62,724 bases of DNA from Acidobacteriota bacterium (GTDB taxonomy: Bacteria; Acidobacteriota; Polarisedimenticolia; Gp22-AA2), in the NCBI GenBank assembly GCA_018606725.1, contig JAGYID010000031.1:1-62724 (forward strand). The letters are read 5' to 3'. A program made the position numbers and the translations under genes. The notes beneath the pieces are model-generated. The model was not told where the DNA came from. It searched no databases and was given only the letters and a program-made list of their open reading frames with translations. Below, in pieces: positions 16 to 20,321 of the stretch. Position 1 is the stretch's first letter. Each line of letters begins with the position of its first letter.

Positions 16-2490
16 TCAGGAGTTGACCGCCTTCTTGTAGCCGCAGCCCTCGTTGTCGCAGAACACCGTCGTGCCGTCCTTCTTGGTGATCTTCTCGAGG
101 ATGTACGGCTTGCCGCAGGATGGGCAGGCTTCGGCGATCGGGCGGTACCAGGTGACGAAGTCGCACTTCGGGTAGTTGTTGCAGCCGAAGAAGACGCGGC
201 CGCGGCGGGAGCGGCGCTCGACGATGCGGCCGCCGCAGCCGTCGCGCGGGCAGTCGAGACCGACCTCTTTCAGCTTGATGTAGCGGCACTCCGGGTAGTT
301 CGAGCAGGCGGTGAACTCGCCGAAGCGGCCGTCCTTGACCGCCAGTTGCTTGCCGCACTGCGGGCATTTCTCGTCGAGCATCTTGTCCGGCTTGCGGGTG
401 ACGGTGATCGCGCCTTCCTTGTCGATGGCGATCTTCTTGGTGTTGCGGCACTTCGGGTAGGCCGAGCACGCGAGGAACGGGCCGAAGCGCCCCTTGCGCA
501 CCACCATCGCCGAGCCGCACTTCTCGCACGAGCCGTGCGCCTCGGGGATGACCGGCGCCTCGGTCGACTTGCCCCCGTTCGGGCCGCCGCCGCCGTTGAC
601 CACCGGCGCCAGCTCCATGGTGTTCTTGCACTCCGGGTAGCCGGAGCAGGCCATGAACCGGCCGTAGCGGCCCCACTTGATGACCATCGGCTTGCCGCAC
701 TTGTCGCACACCTTGTCAGTCGGCTCTTCCTTGGCCTTGATGTTCTCCATGTTGGCCGTGGCGGCCTTCAGGTCCTTGCTGAACTGCTTGTTGAAGCCCT
801 TCAGGGCGGTGACGTAGTCGAGCCGCCCCTCTTCGATTTCGTCGAGCTCCTCCTCCATCCGCGCCGTGTACTTGACGTCGACGATGTCGGCGAAGTGGCC
901 GACGAGCAGGTCGGTGACCGTCATGCCGATCTCGCTGGGCACGAACTTGCCTTCGACCTTCTCGACGTACTCGCGGTTCTGCAGGGTCGACAGGATCGAG
1001 GCGTAGGTCGACGGCCGCCCGATGCCGTTCTCCTCAAGCTCCTTGACCAGTGACGCCTCGGTGAAGCGGGGCGGCGGCTGGGTGAAGTGCTGCTTCGGGT
1101 CGAGCGATTTCAGCGACAGGCGGTCGCCCGCGGCGAGCGGCGGCAGGGCGCGGTTCGCGTCGTCCTCCTCGGCCGCGGCGTCCTTATCGGCCGCCGCGTC
1201 CTTGTCCCGCTTCTCTTTCTCGACCACGTCCTGGTAGACGGCCAGGTAGCCCGCGAACTTCATCGTCGAGCCGGTGGCGCGGAAAATACAGTCGCCGGCG
1301 CGGATGTCGGCGGTGGTGACATCGAACAGCGCCGGCTTCATCTGCGAGGCGACGAAGCGGTTCCAGATCAGGTTGTAGAGCAGGAACTCGTCCTTCTGCA
1401 GGAAGCGCTTAACGTGCTCCGGAGGCACGGCCATCGACGTCGGGCGGATTGCCTCGTGCGCCCCCTGCTCCCCCTTGCCCGTCTTGTAGACGCGCGGCTC
1501 CTCGGGAAGGTGCTCGGGGCCGTGGGTGGCTTTGATGTAGTCGCGCACCTCCTGCATCGCCTCCGGGGCGATGCGGGTCGAGTCGGTCCTCATGTAGGTG
1601 ATCAGACCGACGGTGCCGAGATCGCCGACGTCCATCCCCTCGTACAGGCGCTGCGCCAGGGTCATCGTCTTCTTGACGGTGAATCCCAGCTTGCGCGAGG
1701 CGTCCTGCTGCAGCTTGCTGGTGATGAACGGCGGGACCGGGTGCTTCTTCTTCTCCTTCGACTCGACCGTCTCGACCGTGAAGGTGGCGCTCTTCAGGGA
1801 GCGCACCACGGCGTCGGTCTGCTGCTGGTTCTTGAGGTCGGCCTTCTTGTCCTTGACCTTGAAGAGGCGCGCCTCGAACGGCGGAGGCGCCGCGCCTTCG
1901 AGCAGGGCCGCCAGCGTCCAGTATTCCTCCGGCTTGAACGCCTGGATCTCGCGCTCGCGCTCGACGACCATGCGCAGCGCCACCGACTGCACGCGCCCGG
2001 CCGACAGGCCGCGGCGCACGCGGTCCCAAAGCAGCGGGCTGATCTTGTAGCCGACCAGCCGGTCGAGGATGCGCCGCGCCTGCTGCGCGTCGACCTTGTT
2101 GGAGTCGATCTTCTCCGGGTGCTCGATGCCGTGCTGCACGGCGCGCTTGGTGATCTCGTTGAACGACACGCGGTACAGGTTCTTGTTCGATTTCTTCAGC
2201 ACCTCGGAGAGGTGCCAGCTGATCGCCTCGCCCTCGCGGTCGGGGTCGGGCGCCAGGTAAACCTTGTCGGCGCTGCCGGCGGCCTTCTTCAGCTCGTCGA
2301 TGACCTTCTTGCGGCCCGGCAGGATCTCGTAGGTCGGCTTGAAGTCCTTCTTCTCGTCGACGCCGAGGGTCTTCTTGGGCAGATCGCGGACGTGCCCCAT
2401 CGAGGCCTTCACCGTGAAGTTGCGGCCCAGGAATTTGTTGATCGTCTTCGCCTTGGCCGGCGATTCGACGATGACCAGCGACTTGCCCAA
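16..2490 (-). CDS. topA: DNA topoisomerase I (type IA) with five C-terminal C4 zinc-ribbon modules
   Basis: 824-aa ORF. TOPRIM-like N-terminus (LVIVESPAKAKTI) and type IA core. Five CxxC...C..C ribbons at the C-terminus. TTG start preceded by AGGAG. Confidence 0.95.
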   Translation of the reverse strand: MGKSLVIVESPAKAKTINKFLGRNFTVKASMGHVRDLPKKTLGVDEKKDFKPTYEILPGRKKVIDELKKAAGSADKVYLAPDPDREGEAISWHLSEVLKKSNKNLYRVSFNEITKRAVQHGIEHPEKIDSNKVDAQQARRILDRLVGYKISPLLWDRVRRGLSAGRVQSVALRMVVEREREIQAFKPEEYWTLAALLEGAAPPPFEARLFKVKDKKADLKNQQQTDAVVRSLKSATFTVETVESKEKKKHPVPPFITSKLQQDASRKLGFTVKKTMTLAQRLYEGMDVGDLGTVGLITYMRTDSTRIAPEAMQEVRDYIKATHGPEHLPEEPRVYKTGKGEQGAHEAIRPTSMAVPPEHVKRFLQKDEFLLYNLIWNRFVASQMKPALFDVTTADIRAGDCIFRATGSTMKFAGYLAVYQDVVEKEKRDKDAAADKDAAAEEDDANRALPPLAAGDRLSLKSLDPKQHFTQPPPRFTEASLVKELEENGIGRPSTYASILSTLQNREYVEKVEGKFVPSEIGMTVTDLLVGHFADIVDVKYTARMEEELDEIEEGRLDYVTALKGFNKQFSKDLKAATANMENIKAKEEPTDKVCDKCGKPMVIKWGRYGRFMACSGYPECKNTMELAPVVNGGGGPNGGKSTEAPVIPEAHGSCEKCGSAMVVRKGRFGPFLACSAYPKCRNTKKIAIDKEGAITVTRKPDKMLDEKCPQCGKQLAVKDGRFGEFTACSNYPECRYIKLKEVGLDCPRDGCGGRIVERRSRRGRVFFGCNNYPKCDFVTWYRPIAEACPSCGKPYILEKITKKDGTTVFCDNEGCGYKKAVNS

Positions 2491-2566
2491 GTGACTCTCC
2501 TTCGGCCCGCGCGTCGCTTCGATCGTGCGCGGAGCCCGGTTATCTTTGCTTCAATATAGGCCGCCG

Positions 2567-3646
2567 TCAAGTTTTGCAAGCGGCGGCGATGAATCGGCGC
2601 CCCGGAAGCTGGCGCACCAGTCCGGCGAGCTCGAGGTCCAGAAGCAGCGCCAGCAGCGGCCCCGGGGCCATCCCGGAGGACTGCACCAGCGCATCGATTG
2701 CGATGCCGCGGGTCGCCGGAATGTCGGCGAGCACCCGCCGATGCTCCGGCCCGAGCGCCGTCCCCGGCGCGCCGCCCGGCGCCGCCGGCACTTCCGCCGC
2801 CGTGCCGCCCTCCGGTCCTGCCGGCGCGGCAGCGAACTCGCGCGCCGCCTCGACGACCTGCGGCGCCAGATCCTCCAGAACGTCGGCCGCGCCGCGGCAG
2901 GTCAGGGCGCCGTCGCGCAGCAACGCGTTGGTCCCCTCGGCATTCGGCTCGCCGACCGCCCCGGGCACCGCGTAGACGAGGCGCCCCTCCTGCAGAGCCA
3001 GGTTGGCGGTGATCAGCGAGCCGCTGTCGCGCGCCGCCTCCACCACCACGGTCGCCCATGTCGACCAGGCGATGATCCGGTTGCGCTCCGGGAAATTCCG
3101 CGCCACCGGGCCGAACCCGAGCGGCAGCTCGCTGAGCACCGCGCCGTGCGCCGCGATCGCCTCCGCCAGCTTTCGATGCTCGGCGGGGTAGATCCGATCC
3201 ACTCCGCAGCCCAGCACCGCCAGGGTGCGCCCGCCCGCCTCCAGGGCGCCGCGGTGGGCGGCCGCATCGATCCCCCGCGCCAGCCCGGAGACGACGGTGA
3301 AACCGGCGCCGGCGAGGCCGGCGGCGATGTCCCTGGCCAGCCTCAGGCCGTGCGGCGTGGCCCGCCGCGACCCGACCACCGCCACCGCCAGCGCATCACG
3401 CCGGAGAAGATCGCCACGGGCGTACAGGACCGGCGGCGGGTCCGGCGCGGCGTGCAGCAGGGGCGGGTAGGCCTCATCCTCGATCGTGAGGACGGAGGCG
3501 CCGATGCGGCGGGCGCTCTCGATCTCGGCGTCGGCCGCCGCGACGGCGGCGGCGTCGATCTCCGCCCCGGGCAGGCGCTTTCGCCAGCCCGGCGAGCCGG
3601 CGTGCGTCAGGTTGAGCGCGACCCAGTGCCGGGCCGAACGCGACAA
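2567..3646 (-). CDS. dprA: DNA processing/protecting protein DprA (Smf)
   Basis: 359-aa ORF with the Rossmann-like DprA core (GLARGIDAAAHRGALEAGGRTLAVLGCGVDRIYP). Sits in the conserved dprA-topA arrangement. Confidence 0.9.
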   Translation of the reverse strand: MSRSARHWVALNLTHAGSPGWRKRLPGAEIDAAAVAAADAEIESARRIGASVLTIEDEAYPPLLHAAPDPPPVLYARGDLLRRDALAVAVVGSRRATPHGLRLARDIAAGLAGAGFTVVSGLARGIDAAAHRGALEAGGRTLAVLGCGVDRIYPAEHRKLAEAIAAHGAVLSELPLGFGPVARNFPERNRIIAWSTWATVVVEAARDSGSLITANLALQEGRLVYAVPGAVGEPNAEGTNALLRDGALTCRGAADVLEDLAPQVVEAAREFAAAPAGPEGGTAAEVPAAPGGAPGTALGPEHRRVLADIPATRGIAIDALVQSSGMAPGPLLALLLDLELAGLVRQLPGRRFIAAACKT

Positions 3647-3700: not shown

Positions 3701-3730
3701 TTGTCAAGCAAGGGGGTCCTGGGATATAAG
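3701..3730 (+). promoter_or_regulatory. candidate sigma70-type promoter for the EPS-like operon
   Basis: TTGTCA (3701-3706), then a 17-18 nt spacer, then ATATAA/TATAAG (3724-3730). Lies in the dprA/TPR-hydrolase divergent spacer. Confidence 0.4.
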
Positions 3731-3890
3731 GCGCGCGGATGCCGCATGGCGATATCCTCCGGACCGGGTTCTTCCAGAAAACACGCTCCCTGAAAGACTT
3801 TTCGCGCGCCGCGGACCGCCGGCGCCGCTCGGCGCCACCGAGCAAGGGCAGCGCAGCGCCGGCCTGTACGCTCTCGCCGGCTGGTGCCGG

Positions 3891-6530
3891 TTGCGCCTCG
3901 GCGAGCTGCGGGAGGCGGAGAACGCCTTCCGCGCCGCCCTCACCGTCGAGCCGGGGGCGCTCGATCCGCGCGTCGGGCTCGGCTACGTCTTGCTGCGGAA
4001 GGGCTCGCCGGCCGCCGCCTCGGACGAGTTCGACGCCGTCCTGAGGCGCGATCCGGACAACGCCGACGCCATCAAGGGGCTCGGTCTGGCGTTGCGCAAC
4101 GAGGCGCGGCTGCCGGAAGCGGCCGAGGCGCTGCGCCGCGCGCTGGCGCTGGCGCCCGGCGACGCCGAGACGAAGCAGATCCTCGAGCAGGTGCTCGGGG
4201 CGCAGGGGGTGACGCGCGAGCGCCGGCCGCGGCCGGCCGTCGACGCGTCGCGGCCGTTGCGCGTGGTGGCGCGCGCCGGCGACGGGCGCCTGGAGATCGC
4301 CGGCCCCTCCGGATTCCGGCCGATCTTCGTCAAGGGCATCAACATGGGCGTGGCGCTGCCGGGGCGCTTCCCCGCCGAGTTTCCCGAGAGGCAGGAAACC
4401 TACGAGGACTGGCTGACCGAAGTCGCGGCGATGGGGGCCAACGTCGTCCGTCTCTATACCCTGCTGCCGCCCGCCTTCTACGCCGCCCTCGAGGCCCACA
4501 ACCGCAAGGATCCGGAGCGGCGGCTGTGGCTGGTGCAGGGAGTCTGGACCGAGCTGCCGCCCGGCGACGATTACGCCGCGGCCGCCTTCGACGACGAGTT
4601 CAAGGCGGAGATCCGGCGGGTCATCGACGCCGTGCACGGCAATCTCGACCAGCCGGCGCGCCCCGGCCACGCGTTCGGCGAGTACCGCGCCGATGTCTCG
4701 TCCGGCACCCTGGCGTGGCTCCTGGGCCGGGAATGGGAGCCGTACTCGGTGCAGCGCTTTGACCGGGCGGGCCGGGCCGCGGGCCGGCCGGCGTTCCGCG
4801 GCGCCTACTTCGAGGCCGCGGCGCAGGCCACGCCGTTCGAGTCGTGGCTGGCCTCGACGCTCGACGCCGCGACCGGCTACGAGACGACGCAGTACCGGCA
4901 GCAGCGCCCGATTGCGTTCGTGAACTGGCCGACCCTCGACCCGCTGACGCATCCCACCGAGGCGACCGTCGAGGAGGAGCTCCGCCTGCGGCGCGAGCGC
5001 GGGACCCCGCCGGCAGAGCCGATCCTCGAATACGACAACGACGCGGTCGGGGTCGACGCGCTGCACATCGTCCCGGGGAAGGAATCGCGCGCCGGACAGT
5101 TCGCCAGCTATCACGCCTATCCTTATTACCCCGATTTCATGAGCCTCGACCCCGGCTACAGCCGGGCGCGCGATGCTGAAGGGCCGTGCAACTACATCGG
5201 CTACCTGCGCGACCTGGTCCGTCACCATGGTTCGCAGCCGGTCCTGATCGGCGAGTTCGGCGTCCCCAGCAGCCGCGGCATCGCCCACCTTCAGAGGGAG
5301 GGGTTCAATCACGGCGGCCACACCGAGACGCGGCAGGGGGAGATCGACGCCCACCTGCTGCGCGATATCCACCAGGCCGGTCTGGCCGGCGGCATCCTGT
5401 TCGCCCTCCTCGACGAATGGTTCAAGCGCAACTGGCTGGTGACCGAGTTCGAGAACCCCGCCGATCGCAACCCGCTCTGGCTCAACGCTCTCGACCCCGA
5501 GCAGAACTACGGGGTGCTGGCGGCCCGGCCGGGCCAGCACGCCTGGAAGGTCCTGATCGACGGCCGATCGGAGGACTGGAACGGCATCCGGACGCTTGTC
5601 GAGAAGCGCAGCGGCGGTCCGGAGGTGCCGCTGGACGACGGTCACGATCCGGCGCGGACGCTGCGGGGGCTGGCGGCGGCCTCGGACGAGGGCTACCTTT
5701 ACCTCCGCCTCGACGTGGAGCGGCTGGACGCGGACGGCGACGGGGCGCCTGACTGGAAAGAGGCCGTCTACGTGATCGGCATCGACACCTACGATGAAAA
5801 GAGGGGCGACCGCCGCCTGCCGGTGAGCGACGGACCGGTGCGCGCCGGCCGGGCCGCCGCGCCGGGCGAGCGGACCGCCTCACCGGCCGGCCTGGAGTTC
5901 TGCGTCATCCTGGACGGGGAGACGACCGCGCGGCTGCTGGTCGACGCCCCCTACGACATCGCCACGCACCGCACCCACCGCCCCTACGGCTCGGTGGCGA
6001 ATGACGACGGTCGCTTCGTCGAAATCAGGCAGACGACCAACCGAGGGCGGTTCGGGCGGGACGGGACCGAGTACCCCGCGCAGGGGTACAGCCTGTCGCC
6101 GCTCCGGCACGGGTCCATCGATCGGCGCGACTCCGACTACAATACGCTCGCCGACTGGCGCGTCGGGCGCGCCGGCGACTTCATCGAAGTCCGACTCGGG
6201 TGGGGCTTGCTGAACGTCACCGATCCGTCGTCGCGCCGCGTCCTGCACGACAATCCCGACGATCTCAGGGCGATCGGCACCGTCGTCACCCCCGGATTCC
6301 GCTTCCTCGCCGCCGCCGTCAGGCCGGCGGGAGCCCCCGGAGGGTCGACGCCGGTGGCCGGGCTGGTGACCGATCGGCTGCCCGCCGGGGACTTGCTCAC
6401 CGCGCGCGACCTGCCGCAGTACTCATGGACCGGCTGGGAGCGCCCGACGTACCGCATCGAGAGGAAGGACGCGTGGACGATTCTCAAGACGGCGTTCGCG
6501 ACGCTGCCGTCCGAACCGGCCGGCGAGTGA
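3891..6530 (+). CDS. TPR-repeat protein fused to a TIM-barrel glycoside-hydrolase-like domain and a C-terminal beta-rich domain (5' end uncertain)
   Basis: 879-aa ORF with strong GC3 coding bias. N-terminal TPR motifs. Hydrolase-like blocks: FVKGINMGV, GANVVRLYTLLPP, FVNWPTLDP and PVLIGEFGVPSS. No signal peptide. A TPR motif continues upstream of the first canonical start. Confidence 0.7.
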   Translation: MRLGELREAENAFRAALTVEPGALDPRVGLGYVLLRKGSPAAASDEFDAVLRRDPDNADAIKGLGLALRNEARLPEAAEALRRALALAPGDAETKQILEQVLGAQGVTRERRPRPAVDASRPLRVVARAGDGRLEIAGPSGFRPIFVKGINMGVALPGRFPAEFPERQETYEDWLTEVAAMGANVVRLYTLLPPAFYAALEAHNRKDPERRLWLVQGVWTELPPGDDYAAAAFDDEFKAEIRRVIDAVHGNLDQPARPGHAFGEYRADVSSGTLAWLLGREWEPYSVQRFDRAGRAAGRPAFRGAYFEAAAQATPFESWLASTLDAATGYETTQYRQQRPIAFVNWPTLDPLTHPTEATVEEELRLRRERGTPPAEPILEYDNDAVGVDALHIVPGKESRAGQFASYHAYPYYPDFMSLDPGYSRARDAEGPCNYIGYLRDLVRHHGSQPVLIGEFGVPSSRGIAHLQREGFNHGGHTETRQGEIDAHLLRDIHQAGLAGGILFALLDEWFKRNWLVTEFENPADRNPLWLNALDPEQNYGVLAARPGQHAWKVLIDGRSEDWNGIRTLVEKRSGGPEVPLDDGHDPARTLRGLAAASDEGYLYLRLDVERLDADGDGAPDWKEAVYVIGIDTYDEKRGDRRLPVSDGPVRAGRAAAPGERTASPAGLEFCVILDGETTARLLVDAPYDIATHRTHRPYGSVANDDGRFVEIRQTTNRGRFGRDGTEYPAQGYSLSPLRHGSIDRRDSDYNTLADWRVGRAGDFIEVRLGWGLLNVTDPSSRRVLHDNPDDLRAIGTVVTPGFRFLAAAVRPAGAPGGSTPVAGLVTDRLPAGDLLTARDLPQYSWTGWERPTYRIERKDAWTILKTAFATLPSEPAGE

Positions 6531-8302
6531 GCGACCTCCGGGCCTCCGGGCTGCTCGGCCTCGCTTCGATCCTGGCGCTGCTGCCGGCGCTGGCCGCTCC
6601 CGCCGCCGGCGCCGGCCGCCAGGAGACCGCCCCGGCCGCCGCCGCGCCGCTCACGACGACCGGCGCGACCGACAACCCCGGGGCGACGCCGGCGTCACCG
6701 ACCTTCGAGGACCTCGTGCGCGACGCCGACGCCGCCTTCCGGCGTGAGGATTACAAGGAGGCGCGCCGCCTGTACGCGGCGGCGGTCGGCCTCCGCCCCG
6801 ACGCCCTGCACCCGAGGCGGCGGCTGGCGCTGTTGCAGTCGTGGGACGGCGATCTCGACGACTCGATCGCCAACTACGAGAAGGCTCTGGCGCTGGCGCC
6901 GGGCGATTTCGATCTGAACCTGGAGCACGCCAAAGTTCTCGCTTGGGACGGCCGCTACCAGGAGTCGATCGCCCGCTACGGGGAACTGCGCTCGTCGCAC
7001 CCCGATGACGCGCGCGTCCTCCTGGGTCTCGGCCAGACGCTCGGCTGGGCCGGGCGCTACGCCGACGGCGACGCGGTGTACCGCGACATGGAGGCGCGGC
7101 AGATCGAGCCGATCCAGGCGCACATCGGCCGGGCGCGCCTGATGGCGTGGCAGGGGAACCTGGACGGGGCGACCGACGCCTACCGCGACGTGATCAAGGC
7201 CGATCCCGGCAACCTCGAGGCCCGCATCGGGCTGGCGCAGGTCAACCACTGGCGGGGCCAGGATCGGCAGGCGCAGGCGCAGATCGACAACATCGTTGTC
7301 GATCATCCCGACAGCCGGGAGGCGAAGCAGGTCCAGCAGGAGATTCACGACGCCCTGCGACCGGTCGCCGGCTTCGAAGGATTCCGCTTCAGCGACAACG
7401 AGTCGAACCGGGTCGACAGCGGCACGCTGTCCTATACCTTCCAGGCCGAGCCGCAGACCTCGATCCGGATCGCCCTGTCGACCTACGACGCTTCGTTCCG
7501 CTGCGACGCCGCGACGTTCTGCAACGAGCCGGGCGACGCGGTGGGCGACGAGCTGTCCGACAGCGCACAGGTCCTGATGGGCGGCCTGACGTCGCGGGTC
7601 ATCGGGCCGATCCTGTTCCATGCCCGCCTGGGGGCGACGCGCGAGACGACCCTGGGCGGGAGCGACCGGACCCTCCTGGTCGGCGGCGGGTTCATCCGCT
7701 GGCAGGTCGGCCCGCGGTTCGGCGTGACCGGCAACGCCTCGCGAGACGCGCTCCTGGACACCGTCGTGCTGATCGACCGCGGCATCCGCGTCGACACCGC
7801 CGACATGCGGCTGGAATATCGCTTCCAGCCGCAGTGGCTGCTGTCCGGATCGGGCGGATTCGGGCTCTACTCGGACGGCAACCGGCGCGTCACCGCCGCG
7901 GCCGGGGTGCAGTGGTCGATCCGTCCGGCACGGCCGCGGATCACCGGCACCTTCAGCGCCAGCTACCGCCGCTTCGACGAGGATTTGGACAACGGCTACT
8001 TCGACCCGCTGCGCTACGACTCCGAGCTCATCGTCCTGGGGCTCGGCGACGAGTATCGACGCGGCCGCTGGTTCTGGCAGGCCGAGGGGACCTTCGGCCG
8101 CCAGGCGTTCTCGACCGGGCCGGGGGCCACCGGCGACGCCGGCGACAATGACCGCGTCCAGGGGATCTATCTTGCCGCCGGAACGAAATTCAGCCCGCGG
8201 GCGTCGCTCGAGGCGTACTACTGGCGCAGCGACTATGCCCTGCAGGTCGCCACCGGCTTCACCTCCACGAAGAGCGGCTTCGTCATGAGGTTCAAGCTGT
8301 GA
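6527..8302 (+). CDS. outer-membrane TPR + beta-barrel export porin (PgaA/YaiO-like architecture)
   Basis: GTG at 6527 overlaps the upstream stop (GTGA). Signal-peptide-like N-terminus (LLGLASILALLPALAAPAAGA). About five TPR motifs with recurrent W.G..., followed by roughly 280 aa of alternating beta-strand pattern. Confidence 0.75.
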   Translation: MSDLRASGLLGLASILALLPALAAPAAGAGRQETAPAAAAPLTTTGATDNPGATPASPTFEDLVRDADAAFRREDYKEARRLYAAAVGLRPDALHPRRRLALLQSWDGDLDDSIANYEKALALAPGDFDLNLEHAKVLAWDGRYQESIARYGELRSSHPDDARVLLGLGQTLGWAGRYADGDAVYRDMEARQIEPIQAHIGRARLMAWQGNLDGATDAYRDVIKADPGNLEARIGLAQVNHWRGQDRQAQAQIDNIVVDHPDSREAKQVQQEIHDALRPVAGFEGFRFSDNESNRVDSGTLSYTFQAEPQTSIRIALSTYDASFRCDAATFCNEPGDAVGDELSDSAQVLMGGLTSRVIGPILFHARLGATRETTLGGSDRTLLVGGGFIRWQVGPRFGVTGNASRDALLDTVVLIDRGIRVDTADMRLEYRFQPQWLLSGSGGFGLYSDGNRRVTAAAGVQWSIRPARPRITGTFSASYRRFDEDLDNGYFDPLRYDSELIVLGLGDEYRRGRWFWQAEGTFGRQAFSTGPGATGDAGDNDRVQGIYLAAGTKFSPRASLEAYYWRSDYALQVATGFTSTKSGFVMRFKL

Positions 8303-8318
8303 CGTTCAAGGGGACGTC

Positions 8319-9581
8319 ATGCGCCAGGCGCTGATCCTGGCCATCCTCTGGTGGTCGGGTGGCGTGCTCGCGGCCCTGACGCTCCTGATCGTCGTCAACA
8401 AGGCGATCCGCGAGATGCGCGGCGCCTTCGATCGAAGGCGGCGGGTCATCCTCGGGCCGCTGGTCGAGCGTTACGTCTCCGAGACCGGGCCGCGATCGAT
8501 CCACGACCACCTGCCGCAGCCGCTGCGGCGCCGCGATCGGCGTCTGGCGGAGGCGATCCTGCTGGAGACCGCCCGGACGGCGGGTGGTGCCATGCGCGAG
8601 CGGATCACCGCCGCTTTCGAATCGCTCGGCTCGGTGCGCGCCGCCATCCGCGCCGCGGGCAGCGGGCGCTGGTGGCGGAGGGCGGAGGCGGCCGAGAGCC
8701 TCGGGCTGATGCGAAGCCGGCTGGCGGTCGACCCGTTGATCCGGTTGATGGACGATCCGGCCGGCGAGGTGCGCTTCCGGGCGGCGCGCGCCCTCGGCAT
8801 GATCCGCGGCGGCACCTCGATCCGGCCGCTGGTGCGCGCCCTCGCGGACCCCAGCCGCTGGTCGGCGATCCGCGTCGCGGAGATCCTGATCGGCGCCGGC
8901 GACGAGGCGGTGGACGAGCTGCTCGCCGCCTGGCCGGAGCTGCCGCCGCCGGCGCGGCTGTCGGCGCTCGAGGTGCTCGGACGAACGCGCAGCCGGAAAG
9001 CGGTGCCCCTGCTGCGCGACAATCTCCGGGACGCCAACGCCGACATCCGCGCCCGCGCGGCGCACGCCCTCGGTCTGGTCGGTGACGCCGGCGCGCTCGA
9101 CGATCTGCTGGCCGCCCTGCGCGACCCGGAGTGGCCGGTGCGGGCGATGGCGGCGAAGGCGCTCGGCCGGCTCGCCGACGGACGCGCCGTGGCGACGTTG
9201 TGCGAGGCGCTCAAGGACCGGCAGTGGTGGGTCCGCGCCAACGCCGGCGAGGCGTTGCGGAACCTGGGACCCGAGGGGCGCGACGCCCTGATCCGGATGC
9301 TCGACGCCGACGACACCTACGCGCGGCACCAGGCGGTCGAGCAGCTCGAGCAGGGGCGGATCCTCGACGGCTACATCGCCGACCTGGTCTCGCCCGAAGC
9401 GGCGCGTCGCGAAGCGGCCCTGCAGTTCGTCCGCAAGATCATCTCGCTCAAGAGGGTCGATCGCCTGACCCAGATGGCGGTCGAGAACACCCAGGAAGGG
9501 GTGCGGCGCGCCCTCGGCGCCATCCTCGGCGGCGCGGCCGGGCCGGTCCGGAGCGGCGGCACCGGCGGAGAAGGCTCGTGA
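8319..9581 (+). CDS. membrane-anchored HEAT-repeat protein
   Basis: 420-aa ORF with an N-terminal TM helix (ALILAILWWSGGVLAALTLLIVV). Multiple PBS-lyase/HEAT-like repeats (D..VR..AA.ALG...). RBS AAGGGGA. Confidence 0.8.
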   Translation: MRQALILAILWWSGGVLAALTLLIVVNKAIREMRGAFDRRRRVILGPLVERYVSETGPRSIHDHLPQPLRRRDRRLAEAILLETARTAGGAMRERITAAFESLGSVRAAIRAAGSGRWWRRAEAAESLGLMRSRLAVDPLIRLMDDPAGEVRFRAARALGMIRGGTSIRPLVRALADPSRWSAIRVAEILIGAGDEAVDELLAAWPELPPPARLSALEVLGRTRSRKAVPLLRDNLRDANADIRARAAHALGLVGDAGALDDLLAALRDPEWPVRAMAAKALGRLADGRAVATLCEALKDRQWWVRANAGEALRNLGPEGRDALIRMLDADDTYARHQAVEQLEQGRILDGYIADLVSPEAARREAALQFVRKIISLKRVDRLTQMAVENTQEGVRRALGAILGGAAGPVRSGGTGGEGS

Positions 9582-11041
9582 TCGACGGCGCGCTCGCCCA
9601 GTCGGTCCTGTCGGCGTTCGTGCTGGCGTTCAACCGCTGGGTCATCTACTACTTCATCCTGCTCAACTCCGTTTACGTGCTGCTGTTCCTGGTGTCGCTC
9701 CGGGAGGTGCTGCGCTTCGTCAGGCGGACCTTCTTCTCCGACTACGAGCAGATCCTGCGCTCCGAAATGACCTGGCCGATCTCGATCGTGGTCCCGGCGT
9801 ACAACGAGGCGCGCACGGTGATCGACACGGTCCGCTCGCTCCTGGCGGTCAATTACGGACAGTTCGAGGTCATCGTGGTCAACGACGGATCGACCGACGA
9901 CACGCTGCACCGGCTGGTCGAGGCGTTCGACCTGAAGCGCACCGACCGGGTCTACCGCCGAACCCTGCCGACCGGCGAGGTGCGCGGCATCTATGCCTCG
10001 CTCGCCACTCCGAACCTGGTCGTGGTCGACAAGGGAAAGATGGGCAAGGCCGACGCCCTCAACTGCGGCATCAACGTGGCGCGCTACCCGCTGTACTGCT
10101 CGGTCGACGCCGACTCGATCATCGAGGACAACGCGCTTCTGCGGGTGGTCAAGCCGTTCATGGAGCATCCCGACGAGATGGTGGCGGTCGGCGGCATCGT
10201 GCGGATCGCCAACGGCTGCGAGGTGCGCGACGGGCGCGTGGCCCGCATCGGCCTGCCGAAGAAGTCGCTGCCGCTGTTCCAGGTGGTCGAGTACCTGCGC
10301 GCCTTCCTGTCGGGCCGCATCGGCTGGTCGAGCCTGCGGTCGCTGCTGATCATCTCCGGGGCCTTCGGGCTGTACCGCAAGTCCGAGGTGATCGCGGTCG
10401 GCGGCTACGACCGCTGGTCGGAGACCGAGGACCTCGAGCTGGTCCTGAAGCTGCACGAGAGGCTGCACCGCGATAAGCGCCGGTACCGCATCGTCTTCGT
10501 CCCCGACCCGGTCTGCTGGACCGAGGTCCCGGCGACCTTCCGGGTGCTGGCGCGGCAGCGCAACCGCTGGCACCGCGGGCTGCTGCAGAGCCTGTGGTTC
10601 CACAAGAAGATGATCTTCAACCCCGGGTACGGCGTCATCGGAACCGTCGGCCTGCCGTACCTCGTGCTGTTCGAGACGCTCGGCCCGTTCATCGAGGTGC
10701 TCGGGTATCTCATGATCGGCCTGGCGGCAATCATGGGATTGCTCAACGTCCCGTACTTCCTCCTGTTCCTGATCTTCGCGATCGTGTTCGGCGTGTTCCT
10801 GTCGGTCGCCGCCGTGCTGCTGGAGGAGCTCTCCTTCCGCCGCTACCCCGGCTGGGAGCACCTGGCGATGCTCGTCCTGATCGGCGTGGTCGAAAACTTC
10901 GGCTACCGCCAGGTCCTCGCGCTGTTCAAGGTGAAGGCGTTCTTCGACTTCCTGCTGCGCCGCCGCGCCTGGGGCCGCATGGAGCGCGAAGGATTCAGAG
11001 CAGCCGCTTTGCCTCTCCCACCAGGTACAGCGACCCGCTGA
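9578..11041 (+). CDS. processive family-2 glycosyltransferase (PgaC/IcaA/NodC-like polysaccharide synthase)
   Basis: GTG at 9578 overlaps the HEAT gene stop (GTGA). N-terminal TM helices. Motifs VVPAYNE, VNDGSTD, DADS, TEDLEL and RQRNRWHRG (QxxRW). C-terminal TM bundle. Confidence 0.85.
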   Translation: MIDGALAQSVLSAFVLAFNRWVIYYFILLNSVYVLLFLVSLREVLRFVRRTFFSDYEQILRSEMTWPISIVVPAYNEARTVIDTVRSLLAVNYGQFEVIVVNDGSTDDTLHRLVEAFDLKRTDRVYRRTLPTGEVRGIYASLATPNLVVVDKGKMGKADALNCGINVARYPLYCSVDADSIIEDNALLRVVKPFMEHPDEMVAVGGIVRIANGCEVRDGRVARIGLPKKSLPLFQVVEYLRAFLSGRIGWSSLRSLLIISGAFGLYRKSEVIAVGGYDRWSETEDLELVLKLHERLHRDKRRYRIVFVPDPVCWTEVPATFRVLARQRNRWHRGLLQSLWFHKKMIFNPGYGVIGTVGLPYLVLFETLGPFIEVLGYLMIGLAAIMGLLNVPYFLLFLIFAIVFGVFLSVAAVLLEELSFRRYPGWEHLAMLVLIGVVENFGYRQVLALFKVKAFFDFLLRRRAWGRMEREGFRAAALPLPPGTATR

Positions 11042-14785: not shown

Positions 14786-15152
14786 GACTGGCGCGGGCCT
14801 CCGGGGGGTCGACGTGCCGGCAATGATAGGACACCCCCCGCGGGTCGGTCAAGGGAATCCGACTGTCGGCGGGGCTGTCGACAACCCGCCCCGGCCCGTT
14901 CGGATTCTCGACACGATGGAATAAACCTTGCCATTTCAACATGATAGATGCAGGCAGTGAGCCGGGCGTGTGGGCCCACCTGTCGGGGATCTGGACTGTG
15001 GCTTCTGTCAGGAATGCGTCGAATCTCGTCGACAGCCGCGGAGGAGACCAGGGCGAAATTCGGCAAGCCATCCATTCTCAATAGCTTGACCGAAGCGCCA
15101 GCCTCGCCCGCCGTACCGAAAATGTCATGGCACACCCGTTGCGATTACTGCC

Positions 15153-15246
15153 GGCGTCGGACAACGCCAAACCATCCGCGAGGGTGGGACGGAAAGCCGC
15201 GGGTCTCGAATGCACTCCGAGACAGCCGGGCCGCCTCAGGGACGCC
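15153..15246 (+). promoter_or_regulatory. c-di-GMP-I (GEMM-I) riboswitch-like aptamer
   Basis: - Closing helix GGCGUC/GACGCC.
- P2 hairpin CCAUCC-GCGA-GGGUGG with a GNRA loop.
- Conserved GGGACGGAAAGCC linker.
- P3 hairpin CGGGUCUCG-AAUGCACUC-CGAGAC(AG)CCG.
- The conserved blocks match the V. cholerae Vc2 aptamer as I remember it.
- Located 31 nt upstream of the S8 protease ATG. Confidence 0.7.
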
Positions 15247-15277
15247 GACGCGTTCCGGTGACTCCGCAGGAGGCATC

Positions 15278-17248
15278 ATGCAGGGGCCCGCTGGAACCGT
15301 CACACTTCGAACCCTGTTCCGCCACGCCGGAGTCATCCTTGCCGCCGTCATTCTTATCGCCTTCGCCACGTTGTCGAACGTGGCGGCGGCCGGCAAGGGT
15401 CACCTGGCCCCGGACCTGGTCGAGAAGATCAGGAAAGGCTCGCCGGGCGAGACCGTCAGGCTGATTCTCGCGCCGACCACCGACGCCGACGCCGCGTTCG
15501 TGTACGACAAGGCGAAGGCGCACGGCGGCAACGTCCGCAACGCGTTCAGGACCCTCCGCCTGATCGTCCTCGACATGCCGCTGGGCGAGGTCGAGGCGTT
15601 CAGCCAGGAGACCGGGGTCGATTATCTCAGCCCCGATCGCCCGGTCGGCGCCCTGGCGAGCCACCTCCAGACGACCACCGGCGCCAGCCTGATTTATCCG
15701 ACCAGTAACCTGCTGTCGAGCGGGGTCGGCGTCGACGGCGCCGGAATCGGCGTCGCCGTCATCGACTCTGGCGTCGACCCCGATCACTTCGACCTCCGCA
15801 ACGGCGGCTCGCGTCGCGTCATCGCCTCGTACGACTTCGTCGGGTCCGGCAGCCTCGACGACTCGTACGGACACGGCACGCACGTCGCCGGGATCGTCGC
15901 CGGCAACGGCTATTCGAGCCTGCAGTCCGGCGGCGTCGATTACTCCGGCATCGCGCCGAGGGCCAACATCATCAATCTCAGGGTCCTCGACAGCTACGGC
16001 CACGGCACCATGAGCGGCGTGCTGGCGGCGATCGACTACACCATCGCCAACCGGAACATGTTCAACATCCGGGTCGTGAACCTGTCGCTGTCGGCCCCGC
16101 CGGTCGACTCGTACAAGAACGACCCGCTGTGCCAGGCGGTCGAGAAGGCGACCAAGGCGGGGCTCGTCGTGGTCGTGGCCGCCGGCAACTTCGGGGTCGA
16201 CGCCTACGGCAACAAGCAGTACGGCAGCATCGCCTCGCCGGCCAACTCGCCGGCGGCGATCACCGTCGGCGCCACCAATACGCAGCAGACGAACTATCGC
16301 TCGGACGACACCATCGCGCCGTATTCGTCGCGCGGCCCGACGATGTCGCACACCACCGACCCGGTGACCGGCACGGTCGTCTATGACCGGCTGGCCAAGC
16401 CGGACCTGGTGGCGCCGGGTTTCCGTGTCGTGTCGCTGGAGCGCTACCAGAACTACGTCGTCACCAACCACCCGGCGCTGCATGTCTCGACGTCCTGGAC
16501 CAACAATCGCGGCCTGTACATGAAGATGCACGGCAGCTCGATGTCGGCCGGCGTCGTGTCGGGGGCGGTGGCGCTGATGCTGCAGGCCAACCCGTCGCTG
16601 ACCCCGAACCAGGTCAAGGCTGTCTTGATGTACACGGCCCAGATCATGAACGGGCCGGACCTGTTTGAGCAGGGCGCCGGGCAGATCAACATCGACGGCG
16701 CCGTCCGGCTGGCCAAGCGGCTGCGCCCGGATGCCGGCACCGTCGCGGTCGGGCAGACCCTGGTTGGTTACAGCGGTCTACCGCTGCCGCAGAGCACCAT
16801 CGCCGGCGAGTCGTTGATCTGGGACCAGGGGCTCATCTGGGACAGCGGCTGGCTCTCGGGCCAGGCGCTGCTCACGACCCAGCAACAGGCGTACGCCCAG
16901 TCGATCATCTGGGGCGGCGGTCTTTACGGCGCCGGCGTGACCTACGGCGCCGGGCTGTTCGGCAGCGGCTATGTCGTCTACGGCCGCAACGGCCAATGGT
17001 CCGACATCGCGTGGGACGCCGGCACGCTCCTCACCAGCGGCCTGCTGTACAAGAACGTCACATACGGCTCCGGGCTGATCTGGGACTCCAAGGTCATCTG
17101 CGGCGACTTCTTCGTCGCGGGCCCGAGCAGTCTGATCTGGGGCAACGACTCCGGGCTGGTCTGGGGCAACGACTCCGGCCTCGTCTGGGGTCTCGATTCC
17201 GGGCTGATCTGGGCCTTCGACCAGAGCCTGGTGTGGGGGCTGGAATGA
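15278..17248 (+). CDS. secreted subtilisin-like serine protease (S8) with I9 propeptide and a Trp/Gly-rich repeat C-terminus
   Basis: ATG at 15278 is preceded by GGAGG (15269-15273). Signal anchor present. Catalytic triad blocks VAVIDSGVD, HGTHVAG and GSSMSAG. The C-terminal 150 aa are built from L(I/V)WG.DSG-type units. Confidence 0.88.
   Translation: MQGPAGTVTLRTLFRHAGVILAAVILIAFATLSNVAAAGKGHLAPDLVEKIRKGSPGETVRLILAPTTDADAAFVYDKAKAHGGNVRNAFRTLRLIVLDMPLGEVEAFSQETGVDYLSPDRPVGALASHLQTTTGASLIYPTSNLLSSGVGVDGAGIGVAVIDSGVDPDHFDLRNGGSRRVIASYDFVGSGSLDDSYGHGTHVAGIVAGNGYSSLQSGGVDYSGIAPRANIINLRVLDSYGHGTMSGVLAAIDYTIANRNMFNIRVVNLSLSAPPVDSYKNDPLCQAVEKATKAGLVVVVAAGNFGVDAYGNKQYGSIASPANSPAAITVGATNTQQTNYRSDDTIAPYSSRGPTMSHTTDPVTGTVVYDRLAKPDLVAPGFRVVSLERYQNYVVTNHPALHVSTSWTNNRGLYMKMHGSSMSAGVVSGAVALMLQANPSLTPNQVKAVLMYTAQIMNGPDLFEQGAGQINIDGAVRLAKRLRPDAGTVAVGQTLVGYSGLPLPQSTIAGESLIWDQGLIWDSGWLSGQALLTTQQQAYAQSIIWGGGLYGAGVTYGAGLFGSGYVVYGRNGQWSDIAWDAGTLLTSGLLYKNVTYGSGLIWDSKVICGDFFVAGPSSLIWGNDSGLVWGNDSGLVWGLDSGLIWAFDQSLVWGLE
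17132..17245 (+). repeat. in-frame 24-nt tandem repeat (4.75 copies) encoding L(I/V)WG(N/L)DSG
   Basis: Units start at 17132, 17156, 17180, 17204 and 17228. CTGATCTGGGGCAACGACTCCGGG and CTGGTCTGGGGCAACGACTCCGGC are near identical. Confidence 0.85.
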
Positions 17249-18158: not shown

Positions 18159-20321
18159 ATGCAGAAAGACGAAGCGTACGGCAGGGTCTACATGCTGGCG
18201 GTGGCGGCGGCCGCGGCGGCGCTGGCCGGGGCCTCGGCGGCGGCGGTGTCGCTGCTGCTGGCGAATCAGCCGACCACCATCTCGTCGATCGCCCTGGTCC
18301 CGATCCTCGGCATCGGCTGGGTGATGTATCGCGCCTACAAGCGGCGCGTCGCCGACAGCCTGACCCGCATCGACCAGCTGATGCGCATTCACCTGTCGAC
18401 CATCGAGGCGCTGGCGCTGGCCATCGACGCCAAGGACCCGTACGCGGTCGGGCGCTCCCGTCGCGTCCAGGCGTATGCCCTGGAAATCGCCCGCCTGATG
18501 CGGGTGCCGAAGAAGCAGCTCGAGGCGGTGCGGGCGGCGGCGCTCCTGCACGACATCGGCAAGCTGGCGATCCCGGATCACCTGCTCCACAAGCCGGGCC
18601 GCCTGACCGAGGTGGAGTATCAGAAGGTCAAGGCCCACCCGGCGGTGGCGGCGGAGATCCTGGCCAGCATCGATTTTCCCTACCCGGTCGTCCCGGCCGT
18701 GCGTCACCACCACGAGCGCTGGGACGGGAGCGGTTACCCGGACGGGCTGAAGGGGGAGCAGATTCCGCTCGCCGCCCGCATCCTGTCGGTGGCCGACGTG
18801 TTCGAGGCGCTCACCTCCGACCGCGTCTACCGCAGCCGCATGTCCTACGAGGAGGCGATGAGCCTCGTCGAGGCCTGGTCGGGGGTGCAGTTCGACCCGC
18901 GCGTGGTGCGGACGCTGCGCGAAAATCTGCGGCGCGTCGTCGAGGCGGCGACCCGCCCCTTGGAGGAGAGGCGCGACGGAAACGACGAGAGCGGCGCGCG
19001 GCCGGGCGCGTGGGATGGCTCCAACCCGCTGGGCGACCTGCTGCACGGCGCCGCCATGCTCGGCAACGGCGAGGATCACGGCGGTTTCGGCGACCGCCTG
19101 CACCGCGGCATCGGCGCCCCCGGTGCGCGCGCCCGGGCCACGGGGTCGGCCGGCGCCGGCGACCGGGGCGGAGCCGCGTGGCCGTCGCAGGACGCGCTCG
19201 ACGCCGGTGTCTGGCTGGAGCGTGACCAGGCCGGCGCGGTCATCGGGCGCCGCGCCGCGGTCCTCAGCGACATCTCCTCGGCGCACCGCGAGGTCTACGC
19301 CCTGTACGAGATCGCCCAGATGCTCGGTGCGTCGCTCCGGCTGGCCGAGGTCCTCGAGGTCGTGGTCAACAAGATCGGCCAGCTGGTGCCCTTTCGGACC
19401 TGCGCCATCTACCTCGCCGCCGAGGGCTCCGACGCGCTGACCGCCCGCTTCACGGCGGGCGAGAACGCCGACCTGCTGCGCGGCCGGACCCTGCGCGCCG
19501 GCGAGGGGATCACCGGGTGGGCGGCGGCGCACAAGAACAACCGCTTCTCGTCGTCGGCCGAGGCGGATTTCGCCGGCACGAGCATCGATGCGTCGCAGTA
19601 CTCGACCGCCGCGGCGTTCCCCCTGTGCCACGACAACACCGCTCTCGGGGTCATCACCCTCTACTTCCCGAAGGGGGTCGCCTGTCTCGACGACCACGTC
19701 CGGATGATGGACATCATCGCCAAGCTGTCCGCCGGGGCGGTGTTCAACAGCACCATGTTCGCCGAGACCCAGGAGTCGGCGCTGACCGACGACCTCACCG
19801 GGCTCCCCAACGCCCGCTACCTGCGCCAGGTGTTCGAGCAGGAGAAGATCCGCAGCCAGCAGGCCGGCCAGCCGATGGCGTTGCTGCACATGGATCTCGA
19901 CGACTTCAAGCTGATCAACGACCGGCACGGGCACCACGTCGGCGACCGTTACCTGCGCGAGATCAGCCGGGTGCTGAAGAGCCACCTGCGCGAGCGCGAC
20001 ATCCTGGTGCGCCTGTCGGGGGACGAATTCGCCGCCGTCCTGCCGCTGACCGGCTTCGCGCCGGCGGCGCTCCTGGTCGAGCGGCTGCAGCAGGCGGTCG
20101 ATCTGTTCACCATCCGGCTGGACGAAGGCAAGGTGGCGCGCGCCGGCCTGTCGGTCGGCATCGCCCTCTATCCCCAGGACGGCGAGCTGTTCGAAGATCT
20201 GATGGTGCGCGCCGACTACAACATGTACCAGAACAAGTCGAGCCGGAAGAACGCCCGCGTCGAGCTCCAGCCGAACATCGTCCCCTTCCCGATCAAGAGC
20301 CCCGGCGGCAAGTCCTCCTAG
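18159..20321 (+). CDS. membrane-anchored HD-GYP phosphodiesterase / GAF / GGDEF diguanylate cyclase composite protein
   Basis: Two N-terminal TM helices. HD-GYP motifs LHDIGK and HHERWDGSGYP. A central GAF-like region. A GGDEF domain with SGDEF at the active site and an RERD I-site five residues upstream. Confidence 0.88.
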   Translation: MQKDEAYGRVYMLAVAAAAAALAGASAAAVSLLLANQPTTISSIALVPILGIGWVMYRAYKRRVADSLTRIDQLMRIHLSTIEALALAIDAKDPYAVGRSRRVQAYALEIARLMRVPKKQLEAVRAAALLHDIGKLAIPDHLLHKPGRLTEVEYQKVKAHPAVAAEILASIDFPYPVVPAVRHHHERWDGSGYPDGLKGEQIPLAARILSVADVFEALTSDRVYRSRMSYEEAMSLVEAWSGVQFDPRVVRTLRENLRRVVEAATRPLEERRDGNDESGARPGAWDGSNPLGDLLHGAAMLGNGEDHGGFGDRLHRGIGAPGARARATGSAGAGDRGGAAWPSQDALDAGVWLERDQAGAVIGRRAAVLSDISSAHREVYALYEIAQMLGASLRLAEVLEVVVNKIGQLVPFRTCAIYLAAEGSDALTARFTAGENADLLRGRTLRAGEGITGWAAAHKNNRFSSSAEADFAGTSIDASQYSTAAAFPLCHDNTALGVITLYFPKGVACLDDHVRMMDIIAKLSAGAVFNSTMFAETQESALTDDLTGLPNARYLRQVFEQEKIRSQQAGQPMALLHMDLDDFKLINDRHGHHVGDRYLREISRVLKSHLRERDILVRLSGDEFAAVLPLTGFAPAALLVERLQQAVDLFTIRLDEGKVARAGLSVGIALYPQDGELFEDLMVRADYNMYQNKSSRKNARVELQPNIVPFPIKSPGGKSS

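Follow-up and report, generated by a model that had tools for sequence, protein, structure and literature searches.

The window analysed here is a contig of 62,724 nucleotides (nt) from an Acidobacteriota bacterium of the Polarisedimenticolia (JAGYID010000031.1, assembly GCA_018606725.1; about 70% G+C). Four of its genes form an operon, distantly related to pgaABCD, for making and exporting a sugar polymer. The family to which this operon belongs is widespread but unstudied, and its members invariably encode a membrane-anchored HEAT-repeat protein beside the synthase. The operon is probably a copy of an uncharacterised synthase-dependent exopolysaccharide system, distantly related to Pga, in which the HEAT protein is the partner of the synthase and control is linked to a receiver domain. 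A preliminary description, made from the DNA letters alone, had proposed a four-gene operon encoding a hydrolase-like protein with TPR repeats, a TPR porin, a membrane HEAT protein and a PgaC/IcaA-like synthase.

The list of open reading frames (ORFs) of the window places the four genes consecutively on the plus strand at 3891-6530, 6527-8302, 8319-9581 and 9578-11041 (genes 1 to 4; Table 1). These are real genes and not chance ORFs, because homologs of each of the four proteins number hundreds to thousands. The layout and the domains first proposed are borne out by the ORF list, by Pfam and NCBIfam matches and by motifs. The stop/start overlaps of sequence GTGA that had been noted at the starts of genes 2 and 4 are both present (6527-6530 and 9578-9581). 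The stop of gene 2 and the start of gene 3 are 16 nt apart, and an AAGGGG box precedes gene 3.

Gene 4 encodes the synthase. It matches the Pfam families of processive family 2 glycosyltransferases (GT2), and the motifs NDGSTDD, DAD, TED and QRNRW are all present and conserved within the family. Hydrophobic segments (residues 10-45 and 362-480) lie on either side of the catalytic domain. The best specific hidden Markov model (HMM) is PgaC_IcaA (TIGR03937; 123.1 bits against a cut-off of 422), and the protein is 27% identical to E. coli PgaC over 270 amino acids (aa). The assignment as a PgaC/IcaA-like enzyme therefore stands. The best match to a structural model of gene 4 is full-length hyaluronan synthase of Chlorella virus (TM-score 0.55-0.57 over about 475 columns), and BcsA and chitin synthase come next; gene 4 thus encodes a membrane-embedded processive synthase. 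Relative to E. coli PgaC it has two insertions (residues 117-140 and 211-224, approximately). Both are conserved in the HEAT-associated GT2 family, as is an EN.GYRQ motif near the C-terminus. The C-terminal tail was also considered as a docking motif for the HEAT protein; this idea was dropped, as E. coli PgaC has a similar RxRW...DRG tail.

Gene 3 encodes a membrane-anchored HEAT protein of 420 aa, as first described. It has one transmembrane (TM) helix (residues 3-27), followed by KAIREMRGAFDRRRR and then by HEAT repeats (HEAT_2, E 1.3e-35). The stretch after the helix is basic, and by the positive-inside rule the HEAT domain is cytoplasmic. The single helix and the basic stretch are conserved across phyla. 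A homolog search with gene 3 returned 936 proteins, mostly from metagenome-assembled genomes (MAGs) of Candidatus Polarisedimenticolia (Acidobacteriota).

The evidence that joins the HEAT protein to the synthase is comparative. An alignment of the gene 1 hydrolase was used to scan genomes, one per species, and members of the family turned up in at least 597 of them. Carriers listed include Holophagae (among them Geothrix paludis SG195, a cultured bacterium, with locus L033), many Gemmatimonadota, Nitrospirota, Desulfobacterota, Eisenbacteria, Vulcanimicrobiota and one cyanobacterium. Neighbourhood figures refer to the best 80 of the at least 597 loci, with neighbouring genes assigned by a single-round profile search. 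A GT2 gene is present in 33 of these 80 loci. A HEAT gene lies directly upstream of it on the same strand in all 33, usually abutting or overlapping, and the same holds for all loci found through homologs of the HEAT protein. Since the adjacency holds in 33 of 33 loci across phyla, it is not due to chance. The speculation that the HEAT protein is a partner of the synthase thus has strong comparative support, and the co-occurrence of a TM-anchored HEAT protein, a GT2 and a TPR porin proves to be a conserved linkage across phyla. Family libraries and a full-text literature search yielded no characterised orthologous system. The literature search found no description of a polysaccharide system that combines HEAT with GT2 or a receiver with GT2, and a 2020 survey of biofilm operons (PMC7112194) makes no mention of a HEAT and GT2 system.

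Many relatives also carry a gene for a phosphorylation receiver. In L001, L003 and L007 a stand-alone CheY-like receiver of about 127 aa is encoded between the porin and HEAT genes; it keeps the acidic pocket, the Ser/Thr and the Lys. A receiver gene lies directly upstream of HEAT in L009, L012, L016, L024, L033 and others as well. Overall, about 21 of the 33 GT2-bearing loci have a receiver-containing gene immediately before HEAT, and in four others such a gene is close by. The gene that precedes HEAT in Gemmatimonadota and Vulcanimicrobiota encodes not a stand-alone receiver but a multi-domain phosphorelay protein with the architecture Hpt-REC-REC or REC-Hpt-REC-degenerate GGDEF-REC. The receiver gene found in most relatives points to control by a phosphorelay and not by cyclic di-GMP (c-di-GMP).

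In two MAGs of Acidobacteriota (L029, 5674-9180, minus strand; L035, 15365-18871, minus strand) the GT2-adjacent HEAT partner has about 1150-1250 aa, with a TM helix followed by dozens of HEAT repeats; there is no receiver gene at these loci. The window itself encodes an ABC-3 permease (Znu/Mnt-type) fused to a C-terminal HEAT_2/HEAT_PBS domain (21805-23328, minus strand), which is the second membrane protein of the window with a cytoplasmic HEAT module.

A working scheme can be proposed. The inner-membrane synthase would polymerise a beta-linked glycan from a nucleotide sugar and thread the chain through its own channel. As to the sugar, the nearest relatives of the synthase use UDP-GlcNAc, and the nearest folds to the hydrolase act on beta-glucans, mannans and glucuronides. 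The HEAT protein would be tethered to the inner membrane by its single helix, with the solenoid in the cytoplasm; from the linkage we infer that it contacts the synthase and is an obligate partner in the position of PgaD/IcaD. In most relatives a phosphorylated receiver would dock on the solenoid and so switch the synthase, and two-component signalling would replace the c-di-GMP receptors of Pga, Bcs, Alg, Pel and Nfr. The PgaA-type porin encoded by gene 2 would take the chain across the periplasm and the outer membrane. The TPR-bearing hydrolase encoded by gene 1 would trim or clear polymer in the periplasm, in the manner of BcsZ, the C-terminal domain of PgaB and the PelA hydrolase. The scheme in its strongest form is put forward tentatively, and with some reserve: the TM-HEAT protein may be an obligate co-subunit which relays phosphorylation of a CheY-like receiver to the synthase, in place of c-di-GMP receptors across Acidobacteriota, Gemmatimonadota, Nitrospirota and others, and which is paired with an unclassified family of glycoside hydrolases (GH).

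Most known synthase-dependent exopolysaccharide systems are under c-di-GMP control, and the well-studied ones (cellulose, poly-N-acetylglucosamine (PNAG), alginate, Pel and Nfr) are all activated through c-di-GMP receptors. This would favour an alternative in which the HEAT protein is a receptor for a second messenger such as c-di-GMP and not a docking platform for a phospho-receiver. The absence of a receiver gene from the window and its closest relatives fits that alternative, as does a gene for an HD-GYP (HD_5)/GAF/GGDEF protein which is syntenic a few genes downstream in the window, L003 and L005 (in the last two the order accD, S8 protease, small membrane protein, HD-GYP/GAF/GGDEF gene is the same as in the window). 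We consider it unlikely. None of the four proteins has a PilZ, GIL, MshEN or degenerate GGDEF/EAL domain; a receiver gene stands directly upstream of HEAT in most GT2-bearing loci of several phyla; and to our knowledge there is no precedent for c-di-GMP binding by a HEAT_PBS solenoid. A link of the operon to c-di-GMP had been suggested from a GEMM-I-like element and GGDEF proteins in the window, and it is not supported. A c-di-GMP riboswitch does exist. It is of the c-di-GMP-I-GGC type (RF03167; 65.3 bits, gathering score 59) and is the only riboswitch in the window, but it lies 4 kb downstream of the operon and directly upstream of a subtilase (S8) gene; it serves the protease gene and does not control the operon. 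The maximal ORF of the protease (14948-17248) overlaps the aptamer, and the real start is therefore downstream of it. The HD-GYP/GAF/GGDEF gene is separated from the operon by five genes.

Gene 2 matches many TPR families of Pfam and NCBIfam and has a hydrophobic N-terminus resembling a signal peptide. Its match to the PgaA model TIGR03939 (61.6 bits, cut-off 366) covers the TPR region only. Likewise, an hhalign comparison of the gene 2 family with E. coli PgaA aligned the TPR stretch alone, and a search of PDB sequences with the family returned TPR proteins only. The evidence for the barrel comes from orthologs. The barrel of the L007 ortholog matches PgaA_barrel (PF21197; E 2.5e-5, 24 bits, gathering score 27). 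A profile of the C-terminal domains of the family aligns to residues 636-718 of E. coli PgaA, with the common motifs FSDxNxR and YFDP, and most orthologs terminate in an aromatic residue typical of outer-membrane barrels. Of the porin first described, the TPR domain and signal peptide are thus found in the window copy, and the barrel is recognised through the PF21197 match of an ortholog and not in the copy of the window.

Gene 1 was first described as a TPR protein with a TIM-barrel hydrolase-like domain, and both parts are found, the TPR repeats in Pfam and a (beta/alpha)8 core in an AlphaFold2 model. Pfam and NCBIfam recognise N-terminal TPR repeats only. The remaining residues (about 770) match no family of either library and no named GH family, and a search of PDB sequences with gene 1 returned TPR proteins only. 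A homolog search returned 3085 proteins. The model covers residues 111-879 and was built with 30 homologs (predicted local distance difference test (pLDDT) 86.6; predicted template modelling score 0.89). Foldseek matched it to GH157, GH5 and GH2 structures (probability 1.00, E 2e-10 to 1e-5). The best fold match is a GH157 endo-beta-1,3-glucanase (E 2e-10); a GH5 mannosidase and GH2 glucuronidases were also found. In model numbering, E171 (in REWEP) and E173 are invariant in the 30 homologs, and E171 follows the strand 163-168. E345 (in AEFGVP) is equally invariant and ends the strand 341-346. By analogy with clan GH-A architecture, E171 would be the acid/base and E345 the nucleophile; in the ORF of 879 aa these two residues have the numbers 281 and 455. 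Fold and conservation suggest that gene 1 encodes a retaining beta-glycosidase, as yet unclassified, with C-terminal beta-sandwich domains. The family is large, has no CAZy-type assignment in spite of its presence in at least 597 species genomes, and could define a new GH family.

The synthase and porin could also be those of a divergent pga operon, with poly-beta-1,6-GlcNAc (PNAG) as product and the HEAT protein as an incidental neighbour. Among HMMs, the GT2 does match PgaC_IcaA best, and the porin has PgaA among its top matches; the GT2 shares 27% identity with E. coli PgaC, and an ortholog of the porin gives a PgaA_barrel signal. This explanation is nevertheless improbable. Both equivalog scores are far under their cut-offs (the GT2 scores 123 bits where 422 are required, the porin 61.6 where 366 are required), and the GT2 has two family-specific insertions compared with PgaC. 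There is no CE4 deacetylase, GH153 domain or PgaD: no CE4 or GH153 match was found in the four proteins, BLAST against PgaB gave nothing below E 4, and in place of a small PgaD-type ORF with two TM helices, of which there is none, the gene before the synthase is that of the TM-HEAT protein. PgaD itself binds c-di-GMP jointly with PgaC. The fold of the hydrolase resembles GH157, GH5 and GH2 and not PgaB. Finally, the constant adjacency of HEAT and GT2 across phyla rules out a chance neighbour. The absence of CE4, PgaD, BcsB, PilZ, GIL and MshEN, which had been remarked on from the outset, is confirmed for the four proteins by Pfam, NCBIfam and BLAST.

Another explanation concerns the destination of the product: the glycan could stay on the cell or in the periplasm, for instance as a capsule-like layer or an osmoregulated glucan, and not be released as a biofilm exopolysaccharide. 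Beta-glucanases are among the nearest folds to the hydrolase, which would suit such a glycan. The tight linkage of the hydrolase to a TPR outer-membrane porin speaks against it, as this porin is the hallmark of outer-membrane export in Pga, Bcs, Pel and Alg; we give this explanation little credence.

The genes of the system behave as two modules. Among the best 80 loci, the GH and porin genes adjoin almost everywhere. The gene order in Polarisedimenticolia is GH, porin, optional receiver, HEAT and GT2, beside divergent dprA-topA. The order of the GH-porin and HEAT-GT2 modules varies by lineage, which argues for selection on their linkage. Many Gemmatimonadales have the GH-porin pair alone, so GH-porin and receiver-HEAT-GT2 behave as separable modules. 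In one such locus (L026) the pair lies among unrelated genes, those for NadE, Nramp, a DtxR-type repressor and NUDIX, and many other Gemmatimonadales loci are alike.

The 5' end of gene 1 in the window is damaged as assembled. The start first assigned to it, TTG 3891, is not genuine; the orthologous start is ATG 3739. The TPR motif continues across TTG 3891, and the frame is open upstream as far as 3729; neither an ATG, GTG or TTG nor a signal peptide occurs in this stretch. Relatives of gene 1 have 890-970 aa and an N-terminal signal peptide. The closest is P0122 of locus L008 (969 aa, 86% identical). By tblastn, residues 1-25 of P0122 and residues 78 onward match different frames of the window, the former at 3739-3813 and the latter from 3831. 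Aligned with the DNA of L008, the window is short of 139 bp between about 3813 and 3831. The missing 139 bp encode residues 26-77 of P0122, which comprise the hydrophobic core of the signal peptide and the first TPR helix. Since 139 cannot be divided by three, the frame is shifted and ATG 3739 is left out of frame with the main ORF; the ORF from this ATG now has 101 codons and stops at 4044. As assembled, gene 1 thus lacks a signal peptide, and upstream of 3891 its frame contains no canonical start.

The rest of the gene is a stop-free ORF of 880 codons. Its ratio of nonsynonymous to synonymous substitutions (dN/dS) against L008 is 0.19, and those of genes 2-4 are 0.19-0.35. The uninterrupted ORF and the low ratio mean that the deletion is either very recent or an artefact of assembly. 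The gap may be an assembly or sequencing artefact, in which case the organism has an intact secreted hydrolase and a functional four-gene operon; we take this to be a reasonable possibility, short of an even chance. The source is evidently a metagenome assembly, and all relatives are MAGs or metagenome contigs. L008 has similar short stretches (CCGCG..GCCCTGC) flanking the missing segment, which could mislead an assembler; a genuine slippage deletion from these repeats is equally possible, and the window sequence itself bears no mark of misassembly. The 41-nt deletion junction had no exact match among metagenome contigs, and no record of the window's gene 1 product was found. If the deletion is real, the periplasmic hydrolase would be missing or mislocalised in this copy. 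In practical terms, an annotation of the window should not present gene 1 as an intact secreted enzyme.

Several observations weigh against the reading of the operon as an export system with a receiver-linked HEAT partner and a dedicated hydrolase, or limit what this copy can say about it. Receiver genes are lacking in the window, where genes 2 and 3 are only 16 nt apart, in L006 and L008 and in eight other GT2-bearing loci; coupling to a receiver is not universal. In many Gemmatimonadales, no HEAT-GT2 lies within 10 kb of the GH-porin pair. The barrel of gene 2 in the window has no Pfam match, and the model of gene 4 is of moderate confidence (pLDDT 73). The identity of gene 1 to the solved enzymes that it matches is only 10-12%, and the residue before its candidate acid/base is Arg (R-E), whereas Asn (N-E) is usual in clan GH-A. 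Lastly, purifying selection on the remaining ORF of gene 1 means that the deletion could be an assembly artefact.

Upstream, the operon is bordered by dprA and topA, which are divergent from it. The junction between topA-dprA and the operon (window 16-3646, minus strand) is kept in most of the Polarisedimenticolia loci examined (L003, L006, L007 and L008). Downstream, the border is a convergent FolC-like gene. A promoter-like element, TTGTCA-N18-TATAAG, was read from the sequence. It ends 8 nt short of the ATG at which the orthologs of gene 1 start, L008 has it too, and it may be the promoter of the operon. A consensus promoter scan rejected the element, as the final base of its -10 hexamer is G, and the consensus scan of the operon for promoters and terminators gave nothing useful. 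The 8-nt spacing to ATG 3739 suggests a leaderless or near-leaderless transcript.

Table 1. Coordinates of features of the operon and its surroundings (positions are those of the window unless a locus is named)
Feature	Position	Strand	Basis or remark
topA	16-2490	-	
dprA	2567-3646	-	
Promoter-like TTGTCA-N18-TATAAG	3701..3730	+	Read from sequence; conserved in L008
Gene 1, 5' remnant: ATG + 25 codons (MPHGDILRTGFFQKTRSLKDFSRAA)	3739..3813	+	tblastn of P0122 residues 1-25; DNA alignment with L008
Gene 1, deletion junction (139 bp missing relative to L008)	3814..3830	+	tblastn of P0122; DNA alignment
Gene 1, main ORF: TPR, clan GH-A-like (beta/alpha)8 domain, C-terminal beta-sandwich domains	3831..6530	+	Pfam, AlphaFold2, Foldseek
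Gene 1, GREWEP motif after barrel strand 4; first Glu candidate acid/base	4725..4742	+	Conservation and model
Gene 1, IGEFGVP motif at end of barrel strand 7; Glu candidate nucleophile	5247..5267	+	Conservation and model
Gene 2: signal peptide, TPR domain, probable C-terminal PgaA-type beta-barrel (porin)	6527..8302	+	Start overlaps gene 1 stop (GTGA)
Gene 3: N-terminal TM helix, basic stretch, HEAT/HEAT_PBS solenoid (420 aa)	8319..9581	+	Pfam, TM prediction
Gene 4: PgaC/IcaA-like processive GT2	9578..11041	+	Pfam GT2 families; start overlaps gene 3 stop (GTGA)
Gene 4, NDGSTDD	9881-9901	+	Residue 102
Gene 4, first insertion relative to E. coli PgaC	9926-9997	+	
Gene 4, DAD	10103-10117	+	Residues 177-179
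Gene 4, second insertion relative to E. coli PgaC	10208-10249	+	
Gene 4, TED	10421-10438	+	Residues 283-285
Gene 4, QRNRW	10556-10570	+	Residues 327-331
c-di-GMP-I-GGC riboswitch (RF03167)	15157-15239	+	
Subtilase S8 gene	15299-17248	+	
HD-GYP (HD_5)/GAF/GGDEF gene	18159-20321	+	
Multi-domain phosphorelay gene upstream of HEAT	L019 7008-9002	-	
Multi-domain phosphorelay gene upstream of HEAT	L030 16438-18735	-	
Multi-domain phosphorelay gene upstream of HEAT	L013 12472-13296	+	
Isolated GH-porin pair	L026 9350-13793		Among NadE, Nramp, DtxR-type repressor and NUDIX genes

If the proposed scheme is true, these bacteria control polymer synthesis by a different logic and have a synthase co-subunit of a new type, a membrane HEAT solenoid which usually goes with a phospho-receiver. 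The family is common in Acidobacteriota and Gemmatimonadota, abundant phyla of soil and sediment whose matrix polymers are almost unknown. It is more interesting than this particular, possibly damaged, copy, and the cultured carrier Geothrix paludis makes the idea testable.

The system works like a synthase-dependent machine of the Pga, Bcs or Pel type, the logic to which it had been likened from the beginning, and is evolutionarily closest to Pga. With pgaABCD it shares an inner-membrane PgaC-like GT2, an outer-membrane porin, probably of PgaA type, with TPR and beta-barrel domains, a putative periplasmic polymer-cleaving enzyme, a membrane accessory protein encoded beside the synthase, and a small operon with translational coupling. 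The differences are substantial. Where pgaABCD has a CE4 deacetylase with GH153, the window has a clan GH-A-like enzyme with its own TPR, and the place of PgaD is taken by a HEAT solenoid, some 400 aa long, with a TM anchor. Scores with the equivalog HMMs of PgaC and PgaA fall far short of the cut-offs; relatives carry a receiver gene, and there is no sign of c-di-GMP control.

Membership in Bcs was considered and rejected: TIGR03030 scores 37.6 bits against a cut-off of 699, PilZ and BcsB are lacking, and matches to BcsC are weak and confined to TPR. NfrAB-YbcH of E. coli, which is controlled by c-di-GMP and needed for infection by phage N4, also combines a GT2 with a TPR outer-membrane protein in a compact operon, of a type recognised only recently. 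Membership in Nfr was likewise rejected. BLAST gave E 0.04 for the GT2 against NfrB and >2 for gene 2 against NfrA, with no match to YbcH; the porin of the window is unlike NfrA beyond the TPR, and the window system has neither MshEN nor a YbcH homolog.

Among solved GT2 synthases, hyaluronan synthase of Chlorella virus, BcsA and chitin synthase share with gene 4 a GT-A domain with D, DxD, TED and QxxRW and flanking TM helices. Gene 4 is only 13-17% identical to them, has no PilZ domain of the BcsA kind and has its two family-specific insertions. BcsZ (GH8), the C-terminal domain of PgaB (GH153), PelA (GH166) and PslG (GH39) are, like the putative enzyme of gene 1, operon-encoded secreted glycosidases; their presumed task is to trim or clear the growing chain. 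PslG comes close to gene 1 in that it, too, has a fold of clan GH-A with an added beta-sandwich. Gene 1 differs from all four in that it belongs to no Pfam or NCBIfam GH family, is fused to an N-terminal TPR region and has R-E in place of N-E.

A parallel for the regulatory part of the scheme is found in Myxococcus xanthus, where Cpc7, a HEAT protein, interacts with CheY7, a response regulator made up of a single domain (PMC11514114, citing Darnell et al. 2014). Cpc7 differs from gene 3 in being soluble, in belonging to a chemosensory cluster for the control of development and in having no tie to a glycosyltransferase; its likeness to gene 3 is in the type of repeat. As in those relatives of the operon that have a CheY-like receiver, M. 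xanthus encodes a receiver of this kind together with a HEAT-repeat protein, and CheY7-Cpc7 is a precedent for output from a phospho-receiver through a HEAT solenoid.

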